Positions 3,066-27,974 of a DNA stretch of 32,000 nt are shown in pieces. Origin of the DNA: Hyphomicrobiales bacterium (GTDB lineage: Bacteria > Pseudomonadota > Alphaproteobacteria > Rhizobiales > Rhodomicrobiaceae); assembly GCA_033764775.1 (NCBI GenBank), contig JANRIQ010000030.1, positions 109,701 through 141,700 on the forward strand. Reading direction: 5' to 3'. Position 1 is the stretch's first letter. Each line of letters starts with the position of its first letter. The translations under genes and the position numbers were made by a program. Under the pieces are notes generated by a model. The model saw nothing but the letters and a program-made list of their open reading frames with translations. It made no database searches and was not told the origin of the DNA.

Positions 3066-3157
3066 GGAGTGGTGGCTGAGAGGCCGAAGGCACTCGTTTG
3101 CTAAATGAGCGGGCTCAGAAATGGGTCCCGGGGGTTCGAATCCCCCCCACTCCGCCA
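3066..3157 (+). tRNA. tRNA-Ser (anticodon GCU)
   Basis: Hand-folded cloverleaf. Acceptor GGAGTGG/CCACTCC. D arm GCT-GAGAGGCCGAA-GGC. Anticodon stem CTCGT/ATGAG with loop TTGCTAA (anticodon GCT at 3100-3102). 20-nt long variable arm. T arm GGGGG-TTCGAAT-CCCCC. Discriminator G and encoded CCA. Confidence 0.9.
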
Positions 3158-4774
3158 CTTCGGTATAAAACCGGGAACGCCGATTCCCGCCGTTTTCCCT
3201 CCCTTAGTAGCTACCAGCGTCCTCAACAGGACGCTTTTGCTGCCTTTGAGATAGATCGCGTCATCCGCGACCTCGACGTGCTGGGCGAAGGCCCGGACGT
3301 GTTCCCGCCGATAGCCGCCCTTTCCGAGCCGGAGCCGGGTGCGGGCTTCGCTCGCCAGTTCCCGCACGGCCGCGCCTGTGAGGCCCTGATGAGCCGCGCT
3401 TTTCAGCATGGCCTCGGTCCTTTCGGCGTCGGCCCGCGCCTGATCCCGAAGCGCCGTGAGGCCCGCGATGCGCTCGCCAAGGGCGGACTCGGCTGGGTCG
3501 AGCGAACCGGCTTCAATGGCGTCATAGAGACGCTTTAGGCGCATGTCGGCCTCGGCCGCTCGCTGGTTCAATTCTGCGATGTGCTGGCTGCGCCGCTCGA
3601 CGCTCTCCTGCCGGCGGTCCAGCAGCGAGGCGAGCACGTCTTCGATCCGCTCGGGGTCCAGTAGCCTTTCCTCGATATGGCTGACCACGATGCGGTCGAG
3701 CTTGTCCATGGGGATCGCACGGCCCTTGCAGCCGGTGTCACCCTGCCGCGCCCGGATCGAGCAGGCATAATAGCGATAGCGGCCGTTCTTGCCGGTGCGC
3801 AGCGTCATCGCGCCTCCGCAATTGCCGCAATGGCAAATGCCGGTCAGCAGGTTCGGGCCGCTGACGACGCGCGGCGGCGTCACCTTCGGATTGTTCACCT
3901 GCAAGCGCCTCTGCACGGCCTCGAATATCTCAAGGTCGATCAGCGGCGGCACGGGGACGGTGACGATTTCTTCCTCGGGCTTCACCTCGCCCTTTTTGGA
4001 GCGGCGATTGAAACGATGCTCACCGATATAGGTGCGGCGGGTCAGGATGCGGTGAAGCTGGCCGATGCCCCAACGTCCGCCGCTGCGGGTGAACATGCGG
4101 TTCCTGTTCAAGTAGCTGACGATGTTCTTGACGCCCATGGGGCCGGACGTGCCGTCGCCTTCCGTTGCAAGGCGGAAGATCAGCCGCACGGTGTCGGCGT
4201 GCAGCGGGTCGATTTCCAGCTTCTTCTTCATCTTCGCGCCGCGCTGCTCGGCATCGACGACACGGTAGCCGATGGGCGGCAGGGAGCCGTTCCAGAAGCC
4301 TTGCCGCGCGTTTTCCTTCAACGCCCGAATGACGTGCTTGCCGTTCTCCTTGGACTGGTATTCGTCGAACAGCGCCATGATCTGCCGCATCATGACGTGC
4401 ATGGGATCGTCGCCCATTTCCTGCGTGATGGAGACCAGCTTGACGCCGTTTTTGGCGAGCTTCCTGACGTTGAACTCCAGCTCGAAGTGATCGCGGAAAA
4501 AGCGGCTGAACGAATGGACCACAACCACATCGAAGGGCGCGGGCTTGGACGTGCCTGCCTCGATCATGCGTTGAAACTCGGGGCGGCGGTCATTGGTGGC
4601 GGACGCGCCGGCTTCCACGAAGGTTTCGACAAGCTGGTAGCCGCGCGACTGGCAATAGGCTTCGCCCTGCTTGCGCTGGTCGGGGATCGACACGTCATGC
4701 TCGGCCTGCCGCGTCGTGGAGACGCGCAGGTAGAGCGCGGCGCGCAAGGCGACATGAGGACTTTGCATATTCAC
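3101..4774 (-). CDS. large serine recombinase (ICE integrase candidate)
   Basis: It has an N-terminal resolvase catalytic domain (ALYLRVSTTRQ, VVVHSFSRFFRD), a recombinase domain, a Cys-rich zinc ribbon (CHCGNCGG...YYACSIRARQGDTGCKG) and a long coiled-coil tail. GTG 4774 lies 6 nt after AGGAGG (alternative ATG 4768). The TAG stop at 3103-3101 sits in the tRNA-Ser anticodon loop. Confidence 0.9.
   Translation of the reverse strand: MNMQSPHVALRAALYLRVSTTRQAEHDVSIPDQRKQGEAYCQSRGYQLVETFVEAGASATNDRRPEFQRMIEAGTSKPAPFDVVVVHSFSRFFRDHFELEFNVRKLAKNGVKLVSITQEMGDDPMHVMMRQIMALFDEYQSKENGKHVIRALKENARQGFWNGSLPPIGYRVVDAEQRGAKMKKKLEIDPLHADTVRLIFRLATEGDGTSGPMGVKNIVSYLNRNRMFTRSGGRWGIGQLHRILTRRTYIGEHRFNRRSKKGEVKPEEEIVTVPVPPLIDLEIFEAVQRRLQVNNPKVTPPRVVSGPNLLTGICHCGNCGGAMTLRTGKNGRYRYYACSIRARQGDTGCKGRAIPMDKLDRIVVSHIEERLLDPERIEDVLASLLDRRQESVERRSQHIAELNQRAAEADMRLKRLYDAIEAGSLDPAESALGERIAGLTALRDQARADAERTEAMLKSAAHQGLTGAAVRELASEARTRLRLGKGGYRREHVRAFAQHVEVADDAIYLKGSKSVLLRTLVATKGGKTAGIGVPGFIPKWRSGGDSNPRDPFLSPLI
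3172..3196 (+). terminator. weak terminator-like hairpin just 3' of tRNA-Ser
   Basis: CGGGAA-CGCCGA-TTCCCG (6-bp stem) is followed by CCGTTTT. It lies inside the 3' end of the recombinase ORF on the other strand. Confidence 0.3.
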
Positions 4775-5880: not shown

Positions 5881-5950
5881 GGCGAACCATGGAGGGCAGT
5901 CGGCGGCGTGTAGCGTGCCGCATTTGCGCCTATGCGCTGGCGGCACCCCT
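5881..5950 (-). promoter_or_regulatory. copy A of conserved nested-hairpin leader/operator element
   Basis: Copy A is about 90% identical by hand alignment to 25748-25817, and the 40-nt block 5910-5949 is identical to 25777-25816. It contains GTGCCGC-ATTT-GCGC-CTAT-GCGC-TG-GCGGCAC. It is followed toward the gene by hairpin 5852-5878, then SD and ATG. Confidence 0.5.
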
Positions 5951-18263: not shown

Positions 18264-19214
18264 TTACCGCCGTCCAATCGGGCGGTTGCTTCCCCGCAAC
18301 TGGCCGGGCGAATCGTCAAAGCGGCTCATCTTGCGTGCAAGGTTGAGCAGATTTTTCAGCGTGGCGCTGCGATTGAACGGCGACCAGACTGCGGTAAAGG
18401 CAACCGGCTCTGGCTCGTCGGCGATGGGCACGAAGACGATGCCGGTCGTCGGCAGCAGCGCCGTGGCCGCCCCGACAATAGTGATGCCAAAGCCCTGTCC
18501 GACCATAGACAACAGCGTGCCGCGCCCCACGTCGAAACGCAGGATCGACGGCGCAGGCCAGCGCCCGGCAAGGCGCAGCACGATATGGTCATGCACCTGC
18601 GGGCCAGTGCCTCCGTGGCGGACAAGGAAAGTCTCGCCGGCCAGATCGGCCCAAGTGATTGCCGACTTCCCGGCGAGGGGATGCTGTTCCGGCAACACGG
18701 CCATCAACGGTTCGGTCCAGATCAGGCGGGTGTGGCAGTCGGGAAGCTCGGGCTTTCCGGCCACGAACACCACGTCCAGACGGTCGGCGCGAAGCTGCAT
18801 GACTGCATCGCGGGCGGTGCCTTCGGTAATCTCGACCTCGATACCAGGATGGTCATCCCGATACTGTCCGATCAACTCGGCAAGGAAGCTGCCGGGAATC
18901 AGGGCATGGATACCGATGCGCAAACGTCCATGCTCGCCTGCCGCCGTCATGCCGGCGGTCTTTACGGCATGGTCAAGCTGATCGACGCCGGCAGCGACGC
19001 GCTCGACGAAGTGCCGTCCGGCCTCGGTCAGTCTGACGCCGCGCGCGTGTCGCTCGAACAGGAGGATGCCAAGGTCTTCCTCCAGCGCCTTCACGCGGGC
19101 GCTAACGCTGGATTGCGCCACACCGAGCGACTTCGCTGCGTGACGGAAATTCAGATGTTCGGCGACCGCGAGCGTCTGGATCAGAGAGGCCATGGGAATA
19201 CGCGAACCAAGCAT
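18264..19214 (-). CDS. LysR-family transcriptional regulator (cargo)
   Basis: N-terminal HTH (LAVAEHLNFRHAAKSLGVAQSSVSARVKALEEDLGILLFER) plus a LysR substrate-binding domain. The start is ambiguous (ATG 19214 or 19193). The track start at 19265 is a GTG. Confidence 0.85.
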   Translation of the reverse strand: MLGSRIPMASLIQTLAVAEHLNFRHAAKSLGVAQSSVSARVKALEEDLGILLFERHARGVRLTEAGRHFVERVAAGVDQLDHAVKTAGMTAAGEHGRLRIGIHALIPGSFLAELIGQYRDDHPGIEVEITEGTARDAVMQLRADRLDVVFVAGKPELPDCHTRLIWTEPLMAVLPEQHPLAGKSAITWADLAGETFLVRHGGTGPQVHDHIVLRLAGRWPAPSILRFDVGRGTLLSMVGQGFGITIVGAATALLPTTGIVFVPIADEPEPVAFTAVWSPFNRSATLKNLLNLARKMSRFDDSPGQLRGSNRPIGRR

Positions 19215-19283
19215 CTGTCGGTTCAAGGGTCCATCTATATCCTTCGGCCTGCGCCTCCTTCGCACCAGCTACACCCCACGACG

Positions 19284-20237
19284 CTACGCGCGGCTCTCGG
19301 CCGGAGCCTCGCCGTGACGACCGGATGCCAGCAGCTTTGCGGCAATGGGCGATGTAATCATTTGGATCACTGCGAAGAATGCGGCTGGAACCGCAATCTC
19401 GCTTGGCAGCCCGGAAGCGACGACAAAGGCCGCTGCGATGCTGAACTCCTTCTTGCTCACGGTGAACAGGTAAGCGATCAGCTCTTGCCGGTCGGTCACG
19501 AAGACCTTTGAGATAAACCCAACTGCGTAGCCGATCAGGTTCAGAGTGAGCGCGGCGAGCGCGATGACGATGGCATACCAGCCATATCCGATGATGGTTT
19601 CGGCGTTCGGCCCGATCACTGCCAGCAGTAGGAGCAGATAGAAGATGGAGCCGATGGAGGGATAAAGGCTATCGTGACGGCCTACGGCGGTCGGGTATCG
19701 CGTGCGTAGATAAACCCCGATGACGGTGGGCACCACGACGATCAGAACAAGTTCGAGAATGATGGCTCCAACGGGAACTTGCAGCTCGATCCCGGTCAGA
19801 GTCAGGAATAGCAAGGGCACGATAAACGGCGATAGAACCGTGTTGACCGCATTTAGGACCGCCGCGAGGGCCACGTTGCCACGGGCCAGCAGAACAAGCA
19901 GCGGGGCGGAAACGTCCGTAGGCAGTGTCCCTACGAGAGTTTGTCCCGCCGCTAGCGGGCCAGAGCCGAAGAATAGGCGTCCGGTAAGCCATCCGGCGAT
20001 GGACATGGGACCATAGACAAGGCCGAGCGCCCAAAGCTGACGGCTAGGCTTCTGGAAAACCAGTCTCACGGCATGAGCATCGAAGGTCAGGCTGATGACC
20101 AGCATCAACGCCGCCAACAGCGGGCTAATCCCGCTTTCCAAGAATTTGCCCAACGAAGGCACGAGCAGGCCGAGGCCGGCGACCGCGATAGCTAACAGCA
20201 GAAGATTGTTCTCAATGAACGCGAGGGCTTTCCGCAT
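19284..20237 (-). CDS. BASS/SBF-like (bile acid:sodium symporter family) transporter (cargo)
   Basis: ATG 20237, with GAGGTG upstream, overlaps the arsR-like stop by 1 nt. The protein is polytopic and carries the SBF-type motif TLPTDVSAPLLVLLARGNVALAAVLNAVNTVLSPFIVPLL. Confidence 0.8.
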   Translation of the reverse strand: MRKALAFIENNLLLLAIAVAGLGLLVPSLGKFLESGISPLLAALMLVISLTFDAHAVRLVFQKPSRQLWALGLVYGPMSIAGWLTGRLFFGSGPLAAGQTLVGTLPTDVSAPLLVLLARGNVALAAVLNAVNTVLSPFIVPLLFLTLTGIELQVPVGAIILELVLIVVVPTVIGVYLRTRYPTAVGRHDSLYPSIGSIFYLLLLLAVIGPNAETIIGYGWYAIVIALAALTLNLIGYAVGFISKVFVTDRQELIAYLFTVSKKEFSIAAAFVVASGLPSEIAVPAAFFAVIQMITSPIAAKLLASGRHGEAPAESRA

Positions 20238-20623
20238 TAGGACACCTCGGGCGCGACAGGTTCGCAACGTATCGGCCCGGTCGGACGACCCTCGCATTTG
20301 GCGAGAAGCGCAATCGCCTTATCGCAATACTTGCAGTGACCTTGACAGCAGTCGTGAACGAGGAAGGCAGAGAGCGCAGTTAGTATCGGCCAGTTGACGC
20401 TATAGATGATCGACTTTCCGTCGCGTCGGCTTTCGATGAGTTGCGCATGTTCCAGTTCCTTAAGGTGGAACGAGACGCGTGAAGGCTGCGCGCCGTCCAG
20501 TGCCGACGCTATCGCCCCCGCCGCCATGCCGTCCGCGCCTGCCACGACCAGCATACGAACGATGCGCAAGCGCGCTTCATGTGAGATTGCCGAGAAGCCG
20601 GCTAGTGCGTCATGTTCATCCAT
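20237..20623 (-). CDS. ArsR/SmtB-family metalloregulator with Cys-rich C-terminus (cargo)
   Basis: wHTH region (HEARLRIVRMLV...AIASALDGAQPSRVSFHLKELEHAQLIESRRDGKSIIY). The C-terminal Cys cluster is HDCCQGHCKYCDKAIALLAKCEG...IRC. Confidence 0.85.
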   Translation of the reverse strand: MDEHDALAGFSAISHEARLRIVRMLVVAGADGMAAGAIASALDGAQPSRVSFHLKELEHAQLIESRRDGKSIIYSVNWPILTALSAFLVHDCCQGHCKYCDKAIALLAKCEGRPTGPIRCEPVAPEVS

Positions 20624-24936: not shown

Positions 24937-25433
24937 GGGTCGATCCTGCGGCGATGAAGCCAAGCGGCATGTCGCTCGGGCGTGTAGGCGTGCGGCTCCA
25001 GATTGGCGGTCAAACGGTTGTGGACGTGCCGCCAGTGGTCCGGCGAGGCGTCGGCCGGATCGAGGCCGAGCGATTCCACGGCGTCGATAGCGGCAAGCGC
25101 GCGCTGCACCTTGGGCCAGCTATCGAGGCGCAACAGGATTTCGCCGCCGGGGCGCACGAACGGCAATGTCTGGAACGGCTCGCCGCGACCGATGGCGCGC
25201 ACAATGTCGATGCGCGAAATGACAGTGCCGTGCTCGCCGCTCGCCCATCGCACGAAGGCAAAGACGCCGCCCGGCGCGAAGCCGACGACGCTGCGGCGTC
25301 GGTCGATGATCTGCTCGTAGCTCTTGCGGCCGAAGCGTATCCAGTGCTCGACCTTGCGTTTCTCGAACGTCAATTCGACCAATGTGGTGAAGGGCGCGGG
25401 TCCATGCGCGCCGCGATGCGCGCGCCGGCTCAT
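24933..25433 (-). CDS. DUF2840-like protein
   Basis: 166 aa (LVELTFEKRKVEHWIRFG...). Position and sequence are typical of the DUF2840 gene in this ICE class. There is an ATGA overlap with the upstream HTH gene. Confidence 0.75.
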   Translation of the reverse strand: MSRRAHRGAHGPAPFTTLVELTFEKRKVEHWIRFGRKSYEQIIDRRRSVVGFAPGGVFAFVRWASGEHGTVISRIDIVRAIGRGEPFQTLPFVRPGGEILLRLDSWPKVQRALAAIDAVESLGLDPADASPDHWRHVHNRLTANLEPHAYTPERHAAWLHRRRIDP

Positions 25434-25699
25434 TGTTCGTTCCGTTCTTCGGGGGTGAGCGGACGCGCGGGAAAGACGGTGCCAGCGGTCTTGTCGCGGG
25501 TGGATTTGCGCTCGCCGGTCGCGCTCCAGTCTTCCAGATCGCGGACGGTGTAGAGGACGCGACCGCCGACCTTGCGATAGGTCGGGCCGGTCCCGTAGGT
25601 GCGATGCTTCTCAAGGGTGCGGATGGATATGCCGAGGAAGCGCGCGGCTTCCTTGGTGCGCAACAGGCGCGGCGGCAGGCCCGCAAGCGGGTTGGGCAT
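25430..25699 (-). CDS. excisionase-family HTH protein (RdfS-like recombination directionality factor / AlpA-like)
   Basis: 89 aa. The stretch LLRTKEAARFLGISIRTLEKHRTYGTGPTYRKVGGRVLYTVRDLEDW is a MerR/excisionase-type wHTH. GGAGGTG lies 4 nt upstream of ATG 25699. It is the first gene of a translationally coupled operon. Confidence 0.75.
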   Translation of the reverse strand: MPNPLAGLPPRLLRTKEAARFLGISIRTLEKHRTYGTGPTYRKVGGRVLYTVRDLEDWSATGERKSTRDKTAGTVFPARPLTPEERNEQ

Positions 25700-25747
25700 G
25701 GATCACCTCCAGTCGGGATTGGGCTGCCGGGGGCGGCAGCGGACTGT

Positions 25748-25817
25748 GGCGAACCATGGCGAGGGATCGGCGGCGCGTAGCGTGCCGCATTTGCGCCTAT
25801 GCGCTGGCGGCACCCCC
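25748..25817 (-). promoter_or_regulatory. copy B of conserved nested-hairpin leader/operator element
   Basis: See copy A. The nested inverted repeat is at 25782-25813. The downstream hairpin is at 25723-25740 (GCTGCCG-GGGG-CGGCAGC), followed by SD and ATG. Confidence 0.5.
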
Positions 25818-26158
25818 CTCGGGCGCGGCGTGGCGAATAGTGAGGGATACCACCGGCTCGATGCCTGCCGCGCCGAATAGGCAAAGACAATCGCACGCCG
25901 TTCGGCTAAGAGTGGCAGCGGAGCAGACGCGCTGCTCTGGGGCGTCGAAACCCCTGACTAGTGGTTGTTGCCGGCCGAAACGGCAACGCACTCCTTGACC
26001 TATGGTCGGGGAGCCTGTGGCGTATACAACAGGCTTTCCGAGCTAAAGGCCATGGGGCCGTCTAGTCACGGTTTCGAACTCCCCGATCACCAAGAGTCAG
26101 AGAGAATCGTTTGCGGGGGCGCACCGCAAGCAAACTTTCTCGGATGTGGGGAAAGACT

Positions 26159-26446
26159 ATGCGGGTTCCCGTCGAACTCGATCCCGATGTGGACGACGAA
26201 GCGCCAACCGGCGACGGCATCACTGTCTATGACGAACGGCATTTCGTGACCTATCTGCGTTTGCTGGATGCAAAGGCCGAGGGCGCGGACTGGAAGGAAG
26301 TCGCGCAGATCGTGCTGCACCGTGATCCGGCCGCCGAGGAAATGCGGACCTATCGTTGCTGGCAAAGCCATCTCGAACGCGCGCAATGGCTTTCGCGCAA
26401 GGGTTATCGAAAGATTCTGGAGCAGACCGCCGCCAATAAGGCGTGA
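26159..26446 (+). CDS. single-domain DUF2285 protein (QseM-like antiactivator candidate)
   Basis: 95 aa from ATG 26159, with GGGGA upstream (alternative ATG 26144). It is internally homologous to the C-terminus of the adjacent FseA-like protein: YLRLLDAKAEGADWKEVAQIVL vs SMRALDARLRGESYRTIAEVLL, and RKGYRKIL vs RGGYRLLL. Confidence 0.65.
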   Translation: MRVPVELDPDVDDEAPTGDGITVYDERHFVTYLRLLDAKAEGADWKEVAQIVLHRDPAAEEMRTYRCWQSHLERAQWLSRKGYRKILEQTAANKA

Positions 26447-26462
26447 GACAATCGCCCCTCGG

Positions 26463-27092
26463 TCAACGCTTGTCGGGCTTGATCGGATAGTGGAGCAACA
26501 GGCGATAGCCTCCGCGCATCATCTTGATACCGTGCGCGACCAGGCGGCGGGCCTTGTTCTTACGCGGGTCGCCCTCAAAGTCCTCTTTGGTGCCGCGAAA
26601 GCCTAGTAGGACTTCGGCGATGGTGCGGTAACTTTCGCCGCGCAGCCGAGCGTCGAGCGCGCGCATGGACAGGATAAGCCATTGCCGGAGCTGGGCGGGA
26701 ACGGCTCGGAAGTCGGGGCCGGGCACGCGGCCGTTGAGAGACCGCCATAAACGGCGGGCGGCATGGGCGCGTAGCTCCAGAAAGGAATCCATCGGCAGGG
26801 TGACGGCATAGAACGTGGCTGCGTCGGGCACCGCCTCGGGCAGCCAGAATTGGTGCGCAACGCCATCCACCTGCCAGATGCCGTGCCAACCATCGGACGC
26901 GCGGCGCATGTCGAGGCCGTCAAGATGCGCAAGCGTCAATGTCGGTTCGGTGTCGTCGTCCTTATGATCGACCGGCGACAGCATCACGGCTTGCGGTTGA
27001 AGGCTCGGACTCCAGATCGGCGATTCCCGGTCATGCGGCGCGTCGGGATCGCACGGGAAATCGTAAACCCCAACGATCCGCGAACGCTTCAA
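26463..27092 (-). CDS. FseA-like activator, DUF2285 portion (+1 frame, no own ATG/SD)
   Basis: The frame is open from 27116 to the stop at 26463. The DUF2285-like C-terminus is ...RTIAEVLLGFRGTKEDFEGDPRKNKARRLVAHGIKMMRGGYRLLL. The track start at 27092 is a TTG inside the upstream ORF. Confidence 0.7.
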   Translation of the reverse strand: MKRSRIVGVYDFPCDPDAPHDRESPIWSPSLQPQAVMLSPVDHKDDDTEPTLTLAHLDGLDMRRASDGWHGIWQVDGVAHQFWLPEAVPDAATFYAVTLPMDSFLELRAHAARRLWRSLNGRVPGPDFRAVPAQLRQWLILSMRALDARLRGESYRTIAEVLLGFRGTKEDFEGDPRKNKARRLVAHGIKMMRGGYRLLLHYPIKPDKR

Positions 27093-27246
27093 GCGCGCGG
27101 CCGGTCGGCTGTCGATTCAGCGCCATGGTCTGGAAATCCTGACGATAATCGTCATTCCGACGCAGGTATTCCCATGCGAAGCCGGCGGCCGGAATGTTCT
27201 TCGCGTGCCTGTATGCCGCCGGCAAACGCCAGTCGATGCTAAGCAT
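27031..27246 (-). CDS. FseA-like activator, N-terminal DUF6499-like portion (0 frame)
   Basis: ATG 27246 lies 7 nt after GGAGG. The sequence MLSIDWRLPAAYRHAKNIPAAGFAWEYLRRNDDYRQDF matches the DUF6499-type N-terminus. The TGA stop is at 27033-27031. Confidence 0.7.
   Translation of the reverse strand: MLSIDWRLPAAYRHAKNIPAAGFAWEYLRRNDDYRQDFQTMALNRQPTGRALEAFADRWGLRFPVRSRRAA
27054..27060 (-). other. candidate +1 frameshift heptamer T-TTC-CCG
   Basis: The 0-frame reads CGA TTT CCC GTG. The +1 frame reads TTC CCG TGC. Either a Phe or a Pro slip gives ...WGLRF-PCDPD... Confidence 0.4.
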
Positions 27247-27263
27247 GGCGTCACCTCCCAAAG

Positions 27264-27289
27264 CCGGGGCGTGTAAGGCAACGCCCCGG
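27264..27289 (-). other. GC-rich hairpin abutting the fseA-like ribosome-binding site
   Basis: On the minus strand, CCGGGGCG-N10-CGCCCCGG is followed by CTTTGGGAGGTGACGCC-ATG. Confidence 0.4.
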
Positions 27290-27444
27290 ACAAGAGAGAT
27301 TCAAAGATTGCTGGAAATATAGAAGCCGCCCAAAGCAGATACGTTGAGCGGCTAACCCGATCATTTTTGGTTTTTTTATTCTTAACACTGTCGTTCAGGT
27401 CTGACTAGTCGTTCGCCCGCGTGTGCGGGCAAACCGACCTAGCT

Positions 27445-27974
27445 TCATCTGCTAGAAAACACATGAACCTCATCATGTGCGGTCTCGATGGTGAAAAGGT
27501 CGCCGCCCATCTCGGCGTCGCGCGCCATCGCTTGCCAATCGACATAGTAGCGCAGCGCCTCGGGGATCGTGATGCTTTCGGCGGTCAGCTCCTCCATGTA
27601 ATCGGCAAGGCTGGCGAACTGACCATGGTAGCAGTCCTGCAAAGCAGACTCTGCTTGGTCCATGTCGCCGACAAACTGCTCCAGCAAGCCCGCGCCTAGC
27701 GCACCATGCTCGACGATGAAAACACACCCATCTGCGCCACGCTCTCAACGCTGTCATACTCCCCGATGGTGACGCCCTCGAAGCCCTCATAGTCATGGAT
27801 GGCGTATTCCTCAGCGTTCTCGATGGGGGACCGTGCGAGCATAGCCGCGATCTCGTTCCTGATCTCGTAGGCGTCCTGATCTGCGTCGATCCAAGCCCCA
27901 TGCAGATAGCCGTTATTGTAGGCGGCAAGGCAGGCAACATAGATACGGGGATTGCTGTCGGCTGCGCTGGTCAT
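27445..27974 (-). pseudogene. ardA: ardA antirestriction gene interrupted by a frameshift
   Basis: The N-terminal part is 27974-27696 (RIYVACLAAYNNGYLHGAWIDA...AIHDYEGF). The C-terminal part is 27687-27445 (...YYVDWQAMARDAEMGGDLFTIETAHDEVHVF). The downstream frame read upstream gives VFIVEHGALGAGLLEQF, continuous with the N-terminal part. The frames change at the T4 run (plus-strand A4 at 27719-27722). Confidence 0.7.

Follow-up and report, generated by a model that had tools for sequence, protein, structure and literature searches.

We describe a gene written in two overlapping reading frames in a stretch of 32,000 nucleotides from a Hyphomicrobiales bacterium (GenBank assembly GCA_033764775.1, contig JANRIQ010000030.1, positions 109,701 to 141,700 of the forward strand). 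The whole of this stretch is referred to as the window, and coordinates are given in its own numbering. With a probability of about 0.9, the locus at 26463 to 27246 is a single gene for a transcriptional activator of the FseA family, carried by a conjugative element, and its full-length product is made by a +1 ribosomal frameshift. Programmed +1 frameshifting of FseA was reportedly described by Ramsay et al. in PNAS in 2015. In ICEMlSymR7A of Mesorhizobium japonicum R7A (R7A), FseA is produced from msi172 and msi171 by a +1 slip of tRNA-Phe from UUU to UUC, with a conserved G-rich region upstream (PMC4755241). Among 4,709 homologues curated by Jowsey et al. (2023), about 61% have a conserved +1 site; the adjacent WGL motif is encoded by UGGGGG, which resembles a ribosome-binding site, and annotation pipelines split or miss such genes (PMC10359603). 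Judged by its sequence, the window gene shows all the features expected of this family and is a further copy of an already-known phenomenon. The two open reading frames (ORFs) and their signals are as follows.

27031 to 27246, minus strand: fseA ORF1 (msi172-like); PF20109 (DUF6499), E = 2e-24, full-length match
26463 to 27116, minus strand: fseA ORF2 (msi171-like), the open +1 frame; PF10074 (DUF2285), E = 2e-29
27057 to 27063, minus strand: shift site CGA-UUU-C; CGA and TTT invariant in 79/79 aligned sequences, frame switch bracketed here
27067 to 27072, minus strand: Shine-Dalgarno-like UGGGGU, encoding the W-G of the conserved WGL, 6 nucleotides upstream of UUU; GGGG invariant
27254 to 27258, minus strand: Shine-Dalgarno GGAGG of fseA ORF1, present in the sequence and conserved in relatives

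ORF1 extends from an ATG at 27246-27244 to a frame-0 stop, TGA, at 27033-27031 and carries an AWEYLRRN motif (of the AWEFLRRN type) at residues 24-31. Without a frameshift, its product is a DUF6499 peptide of 71 amino acids. The ORF2 frame opens after a TGA at 27119-27117 and stops at 26465-26463, the coordinate modulo 3 moving from 0 to 2, i.e., +1 on the minus strand. The 86-nucleotide overlap of the two ORFs includes CGU-UGG-GGU-UUA-CGA-UUU-CCC-GUG, within which UGG-GGU-UUA-CGA-UUU-C occupies 27072-27057, near the 3' end of ORF1 on the minus strand; a single match to the motif TGGGGNYTNCGATTTY is present in the window, where chance would give 0.02. ORF2 is predicted to be coding from CCG 27056 onwards and to span a middle domain and the DUF2285 helix-turn-helix (HTH) domain. 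The fused coding sequence is complement(join(26463..27056, 27058..27246)), with a product of 260 amino acids. An earlier note on this DNA had proposed an FseA-like activator split in this way; all of its coordinates (27246-27031; open from 27116; end at 26463; CGA-TTT-CCC-GTG at 27063-27052) match the sequence, and the Pfam matches listed above bear out the domain pair that it had named.

To locate the point at which coding passes from one frame to the other, we calculated the share of variant codons that are synonymous, per frame and segment, among 64 distinct sequences of the locus. The synonymous fractions were:

ATG to overlap start: frame 0, 0.56; +1, 0.18; +2, 0.24
Overlap upstream of the site: frame 0, 0.43; +1, 0.29; +2, 0.27
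Site to frame-0 stop: frame 0, 0.36; +1, 0.57; +2, 0.15
Frame-0 stop to end: frame 0, 0.21; +1, 0.58; +2, 0.23

The same reversal is seen codon by codon. Upstream of the site, variation in frame 0 is purely synonymous (GGN appears as GGG, GGT, GGC or GGA, and Leu as TTG, TTA or CTG), while the same bases read in +1 would give G, V, A or D. Downstream, it is the frame-0 codons that change the amino acid (GTG/ATG/CTG/TTG/GAA/AAA; TCC/CCC), and the +1 codons that vary only synonymously (CCG/CCA/CCC/CCT, then GAT/GAC, a second Pro as CCC/CCA/CCG/CCT and a second Asp as GAC/GAT). This reversal confines the switch to UUR-CGA-UUU-C, i.e., to within 10 bases, and within it UUU-C alone allows a P-site tRNA to re-pair after moving forward by one base. 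By this measure, both halves are under purifying selection, each in its own frame, across the 64 sequences. The +1 phase and the shift site given in the earlier note are in keeping with this result, since constraint moves from frame 0 to +1 at the site.

Close relatives were collected by a scan taking one genome per species; most of the 80 loci so obtained are alphaproteobacterial, and their protein identity is 83-93%. Counts out of 80 refer to full-length copies, window included, from different species and independent assemblies; alignment-based counts refer to 79 aligned sequences. Only two of the full-length close copies, L001 and L002, are single ORFs, and the other 78/80 are split identically. 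In a motif-frame scan that included the window, the AWE..RR and HAARR motifs lay one frame apart in 75/81 sequences; of five loci missed by the strict motif, three have the canonical junction and one is truncated. The junction is near-identical across relatives (CGC-TGG-GGN-TTG-CGA-TTT-CCC-GTG-CGA-TCC-CGA-CGC-GCC-GCA-TGA). The frame-0 stop occupies the same alignment position in 75/79, and the +1 frame is likewise open to its normal end (about 590 nucleotides) in 75/79. Neither CGA (27061-27063) nor UUU (27058-27060) varies in any aligned relative, although both are rare codons: in 18 genes of the window, which has 65% G+C, CGA makes up 8% of Arg codons and UUU 16% of Phe codons. Their invariance points to constraint at the nucleotide level rather than codon preference.

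This pattern bears directly on the idea that a sequencing or assembly error, by gaining or losing one base, had split a single ORF. Errors or recent mutations do occur here, as ardA, 400 bp away in the window, is also broken. The ardA break, however, is confined to the window, which is the opposite of what is seen for fseA, where the split falls at the identical position in 78/80 full-length relatives from independent assemblies and in finished plasmids down to 27% identity. The conserved split in independent assemblies effectively excludes such an error.

A frameshift mutation that had inactivated a former single-ORF activator, leaving a decaying pseudogene, would agree with the existence of single-ORF homologues and with the fact that individual copies do decay, one relative (L034) having a +1-frame stop just past the site. 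We nevertheless regard it as very improbable, given that each half is under purifying selection in its own frame and that ORF2 stays open, as described above; in addition, the nucleotides of the site are conserved beyond synonymous sites elsewhere, and the split is kept across lineages of 27-40% identity.

The exceptional copies differ among themselves. L001 became a single ORF through the loss of one base (T) 7 nucleotides upstream of the site, giving TGGGGGTGCGATTTC (L001 4174-4200), and L002 through an indel further upstream (near 4230). A further protein, P0001, keeps to frame 0 for eight codons before rejoining. In L034, from Pseudogemmobacter humi, a +1-frame TGA follows the shift site directly (CCCGTGAGAC) and the frame-0 stop is missing; this copy is probably inactivated. 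Natural single-ORF copies in the clade look like secondary one-base indels at differing places, and the split form looks ancestral there.

We also considered that the locus might encode two separate proteins, a small one with DUF6499 and another with DUF2285, the latter being initiated independently, for example at TTG 27092 or through reinitiation, and that the two would act as a two-subunit activator. Annotation pipelines do call two genes here, with ORF2 begun at the TTG or at other alternative codons, and the contacts between DUF6499 and DUF2285 in FseA models (PMC10359603) make an association in trans conceivable. The TTG lies within ORF2 and is used as a start by ORF callers; it has no Shine-Dalgarno sequence and corresponds to a start codon in only 52/79 relatives, and was rejected as an independent ORF2 start for this lack of conservation. 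The statement of the earlier note, that ORF2 lacks an ATG or Shine-Dalgarno sequence of its own, thus holds in substance, with the reservation that this TTG exists. Upstream of the site, moreover, the +1 frame is without coding constraint, and the natural fusions L001, L002 and P0001 arose by single-base indels next to the site with collinearity kept. Promoter activation by the unfused msi172-msi171 pair of R7A is only 0.8% of that by a fused gene (PMC4755241). Two independent proteins are on these grounds quite improbable.

We then turned to more distant homologues. A tblastn search against annotated plasmids yielded 57 records, of which twelve were inspected. On the R7A side, QseM and RdfS were represented by their PDB entries, and a homologue on a Mesorhizobium ciceri plasmid stood in for Msi172/Msi171. 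The distant split homologues, with their protein identity and site, were:

Ketogulonicigenium, 65%: TGG-GGG-GTG-CGA-TTT-C
Bradyrhizobium, 40%: TGG-GGC-ATC-TGC-TTT-C
Methylocystis, 34%: TGG-GGG-TTG-CGA-TTT-C
Sinorhizobium, 33%: TGG-GGG-CTT-CGA-TTT-C
Mesorhizobium ciceri pMc1192, 33%: TGG-GGC-GCG-CGA-TTT-C
Sphingopyxis, 32%: TGG-GGG-TTG-CGA-TTT-C
Novosphingobium, 32%: TGG-GGC-CTG-AGC-TTT-T
Rhodopseudomonas, 31%: TGG-GGG-TTG-CAT-TTT-C
Agrobacterium, 27%: TGG-GGG-TTG-CGA-TTT-C

In all nine (27-65% identity), UGGGG precedes UUU-Y in an unchanged register and the +1 frame runs into the DUF2285 part; 6/9 retain CGA in the E-site position. The conserved core is CGA-UUU-Y together with UGGGG, the frame-0 codon after UUU being CCC, CGC or CAC. 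The earlier note had pointed to a TTTCCCG heptamer; the CGA-UUU-Y and UGGGG portions are conserved, but the full heptamer is not, as the base after the slip site varies. Two close relatives read UUU-UCC-G in place of UUU-CCC-G, and distant homologues read UUU-CGC or UUU-CAC; a proline slip on CCC-G was rejected as a general mechanism on this evidence. CGA, a rare codon that does not vary among the close relatives, may contribute to the frameshift signal from the E site.

Slippage of RNA polymerase, which would leave out a base of the T3 or C3 run so that the mRNA encodes the fusion, has in its favor the short T and C runs at the site and the use of slippage by other mobile elements (PMC5009743). 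We consider it extremely improbable. Three-base runs are, as is generally known, far below the lengths of known slippage sites, and the C run is not conserved, being TTTCGC or TTTCAC in distant homologues, while the conserved E-site CGA, the UUU-Y and the upstream GGGG fit a ribosomal event, and the shift in R7A has been ascribed to tRNA-Phe re-pairing (PMC4755241).

A ribosomal +1 shift joining the two frames is also consistent with the collinearity of the product with unsplit homologues. The fused window product aligns without gaps across RWGLRF|PCDP with single-ORF proteins of the close clade such as P0008 and P0084 (RWGLRFPCDP), so that the claim of the earlier note that the RF|PC join reads as one protein was confirmed. 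Single-ORF homologues on Tn4371-like elements of beta- and gammaproteobacteria, those of Polaromonas pPNAP01 and a Citrobacter freundii plasmid, share the domain pair and the position upstream of an HTH gene and RepA. They differ in needing no frameshift, with CGC-CTG-CTG or CGC-ATG-CTG at the site, and read RWGLR-L/M-L-E-DP, collinear with RWGLR-F-P-C-DP of the window.

In the mechanism that we propose, translation would start from ATG 27246 and proceed through the DUF6499 domain, and the majority of ribosomes would stay in frame 0, end at TGA 27033 and release the 71-amino-acid DUF6499 peptide. In a minority, peptidyl-tRNA-Phe on UUU (27060-27058) would re-pair forward onto UUC (27059-27057), CCG (27056-27054) would be read next, and a 260-amino-acid DUF6499-DUF2285 protein with the junction ...DRWGLRF-PCDPDAPHD... 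would result. The likeness to FseA (msi172/msi171) drawn in the earlier note is borne out by the published UUU-C slip of tRNA-Phe and the matching G-rich WGL coding upstream (PMC4755241, PMC10359603): as in R7A, frame 0 encodes DUF6499 and +1 encodes DUF2285, and UUU-C stands near the 3' end of ORF1 after a WGL encoded by UGGGGN.

Several points weigh against this interpretation. Close relatives are about 75-90% identical in DNA, and part of the conservation reflects the recent spread of one element family. In frame 0, UUU is followed by CCC in the window and by CGC or CAC in other copies, and this codon is neither rare nor a stop. No stimulatory RNA structure was found when 27110-27020 was folded, the folding energy equalling that of shuffled sequences (z = -0.04). 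The homologue on the Azospirillum lipoferum 4B plasmid AZO_p2 (L089, ~1650-1690) is +1-split without a UUU, its site being UGG-GGG-UUG-UCC-UGU; this copy either uses another shift codon or is decayed. The occurrence and efficiency of the slip, as well as DNA binding and antiactivation, are carried over from the R7A literature; the window itself shows the anatomy, the conserved split, the frame switch of constraint, and the partner genes and boxes. The +1 frameshift of prfB (RF2) combines re-pairing of the P-site tRNA with an upstream Shine-Dalgarno-like sequence. Unlike prfB, the window site has neither an in-frame stop nor a known slow A-site codon; its Shine-Dalgarno-like sequence lies further from the P-site codon, at 6 nucleotides as compared with 3 in prfB, and the autoregulatory logic through the level of release factor is absent.

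The surroundings of fseA resemble the transfer-control circuit of R7A. The features concerned are:

26159 to 26446, plus strand: QseM-like antiactivator, DUF2285 only; PF10074 29.4 bits; PDB 7UQT (QseM) E = 6.4e-18
25430 to 25699, minus strand: rdfS-like excisionase-type winged-HTH gene; HTH_17; PDB 8DGL (RdfS, M. japonicum R7A) E = 6e-10
25782 to 25813, minus strand: FseA-box-like inverted repeat GTGCCGC-N18-GCGGCAC, 83-114 nucleotides upstream of the rdfS-like start codon
25433-24933, minus strand: DUF2840
24963-24391, minus strand: S26 peptidase (traF type)
24437-23091, minus strand: SLT transglycosylase
22777-20723, minus strand: DUF3363 relaxase
18139-16151, minus strand: traG
15567-6188, minus strand: trbB to trbI

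The QseM-like ORF is convergent with fseA and has a net charge of -4, as compared with +13 for the DUF2285 part of FseA, which matches the published acidic-versus-basic contrast (PMC10359603). The rdfS-like gene heads a run comprising DUF2840, traF (S26 peptidase), the SLT transglycosylase and the relaxase. In the inverted repeat, the hexamers TGCCGC-N18-GCGGCA lie at -84 to -113 from the rdfS-like start, and a comparable TGnCGn...nCGnCA repeat was present at the same distance in about eight of the eleven distant loci checked. By place and form the repeat is a candidate FseA box, as would be expected, with a spacer of 18 nucleotides as compared with the published 15-16. By analogy with ICEMlSymR7A, full-length FseA would dimerise and bind this repeat upstream of the rdfS-like operon, thereby turning on excision and transfer, while the convergent QseM-like protein would bind the DUF6499 domain and block activation. 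Low frameshift efficiency, which is 4-13% in R7A (PMC4755241), would hold the output of the activator down.

A convergent QseM-like antiactivator, and an rdfS-like gene, traF, transglycosylase and relaxase behind an inverted-repeat box, are thus common to the window and R7A. The two differ in other respects. The TraR/TraI quorum-sensing genes and traI2 leader of R7A were not recognised upstream of fseA in the window, where the neighbour is ardA instead, and the window is without a QseC-like regulator beside the qseM-like gene. Its box lies at -83 to -114, as compared with about -62 to -95. No Pfam match to the LuxR/LuxI families was found among the larger window ORFs scanned (a subset of the ORFs), and no TraR/tra box input was seen; such input belongs to R7A and does not characterise the wider FseA family. 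Likewise, no HTH ORF that could be a QseC-type Xre regulator divergent from the qseM-like gene was found between 25700 and 26159; distant relatives do have an HTH regulator beside the qseM-like gene. With neither LuxR/LuxI genes nor a QseC-like regulator seen, the upstream input differs from that of R7A. A scan of 25600-27500 found no promoter, and terminators at chance level only; FseA, QseM, RdfS and the small ORFs are not represented by models in NCBIfam.

Two further systems were compared with the window. The two-ORF pair of Ketogulonicigenium vulgare pKvSKV1, an example of the FseA homologues on alphaproteobacterial plasmids and ICEs that are annotated as 'DUF6499' and 'DUF2285 domain-containing protein', has the same CGA-UUU-C, a convergent short DUF2285 gene and the same box upstream of an HTH gene, but RepA and ParA follow that HTH gene, whereas the window passes directly to DUF2840 and traF. 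RovC of Yersinia (PDB 6XZ5), an activator of type VI secretion, has the same AWE-LRRN plus DUF2285 architecture and is structurally related to FseA according to Jowsey et al. (2023; PMC10359603). RovC lies outside conjugative elements, is encoded without a frameshift, and shows only marginal similarity in sequence (E = 0.15).

A second copy of the box and a possible structure in the fseA leader were also found:

5915 to 5946, minus strand: second, identical FseA-box-like repeat, with the same downstream promoter-like sequence as the rdfS-side copy
27253 to 27300, minus strand: predicted 5' untranslated region (5'-UTR) structure of fseA (RNAalifold, 13 leader variants)

The second box is part of an 89-nucleotide repeat in which 5868-5956 matches 25735-25823. 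Behind it lies an operon that comprises an ORF at 5827-5507 (ORF106), then a DUF6516/TumE-like and an HTH gene, and ends in a large serine recombinase (4774-3101). Enterobacter hormaechei pKPC_CAV1176 contains an embedded relative in which box and operon are arranged in the same way (L093, 3556-3585). In this respect, too, the window differs from R7A, whose integrase is the tyrosine recombinase IntS, switched on by RdfS (PMC11963761); in the window, the integrase is the large serine recombinase behind the second box. A limited literature search found no published link of FseA to a serine recombinase. FseA would probably bind this identical repeat as well, and its presence suggests direct control of the recombinase operon by FseA.

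In the leader model, a GC-rich hairpin is enclosed by a helix in which A(U/C)CUCUC pairs with the Shine-Dalgarno GGGAGGU. The structure is conserved in the 13 leader variants, and three of its 15 predicted pairs show compensatory changes, i.e., weak covariation. This predicted helix could act as an extra translational brake on fseA by sequestering the Shine-Dalgarno sequence. Taken together, these observations raise the tentative possibility, which we hold to be somewhat doubtful, that FseA switches the recombination module itself rather than via RdfS, and that fseA is gated twice, by the 5'-UTR helix and by the +1 shift, perhaps with CGA in the signal.

The conjugative element extends roughly over 3.1-28.9 kb. 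At one end, the serine recombinase gene overlaps with its 3' end a tRNA-Ser(GCU) gene (3066-3157), and the housekeeping gene nuoD (31084-29840) lies beyond the other end. A search from the tRNA-Ser region to the right end turned up no direct repeats of at least 10 nucleotides that would mark the ends of the element, which is what one would expect with a serine recombinase. The element carries cargo at 18264-20623 on the minus strand, in the interval from the relaxase to traG: an HTH gene of the ArsR type, a transporter of the SBF/ACR3-like kind and a LysR regulator. These may form a small resistance or transport module. The ardA gene (27974-27445, minus strand) is split into two frames by a net insertion of 2 nucleotides near 27700, at a GTGTGTTTT run, where the window reads ATGGGTGTGTTTTCATCG and relatives read ATGGGCGCTTTCATCG; it is intact in 55/55 loci carrying a comparable ardA. 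This break is a window-specific pseudogene or a sequencing error.

With respect to the published account of FseA, the window holds nothing biologically new, and its gene is another member of a very widespread clade. About 80 species have near-identical copies, and Enterobacter and Klebsiella plasmids likewise carry the neighbouring recombinase module. In annotation, the 'DUF6499 protein' call and the 'DUF2285 protein' call should become a single coding sequence with a frameshift, as the master switch of the element is otherwise missed. The comparative gain is modest and consists of a switch in coding constraint located to within about 10 nucleotides, an invariant pair of rare codons, CGA-UUU, the identification of UUU-Y, not CCC-G, as the common slip codon, and a second candidate target of FseA before the serine-recombinase operon.

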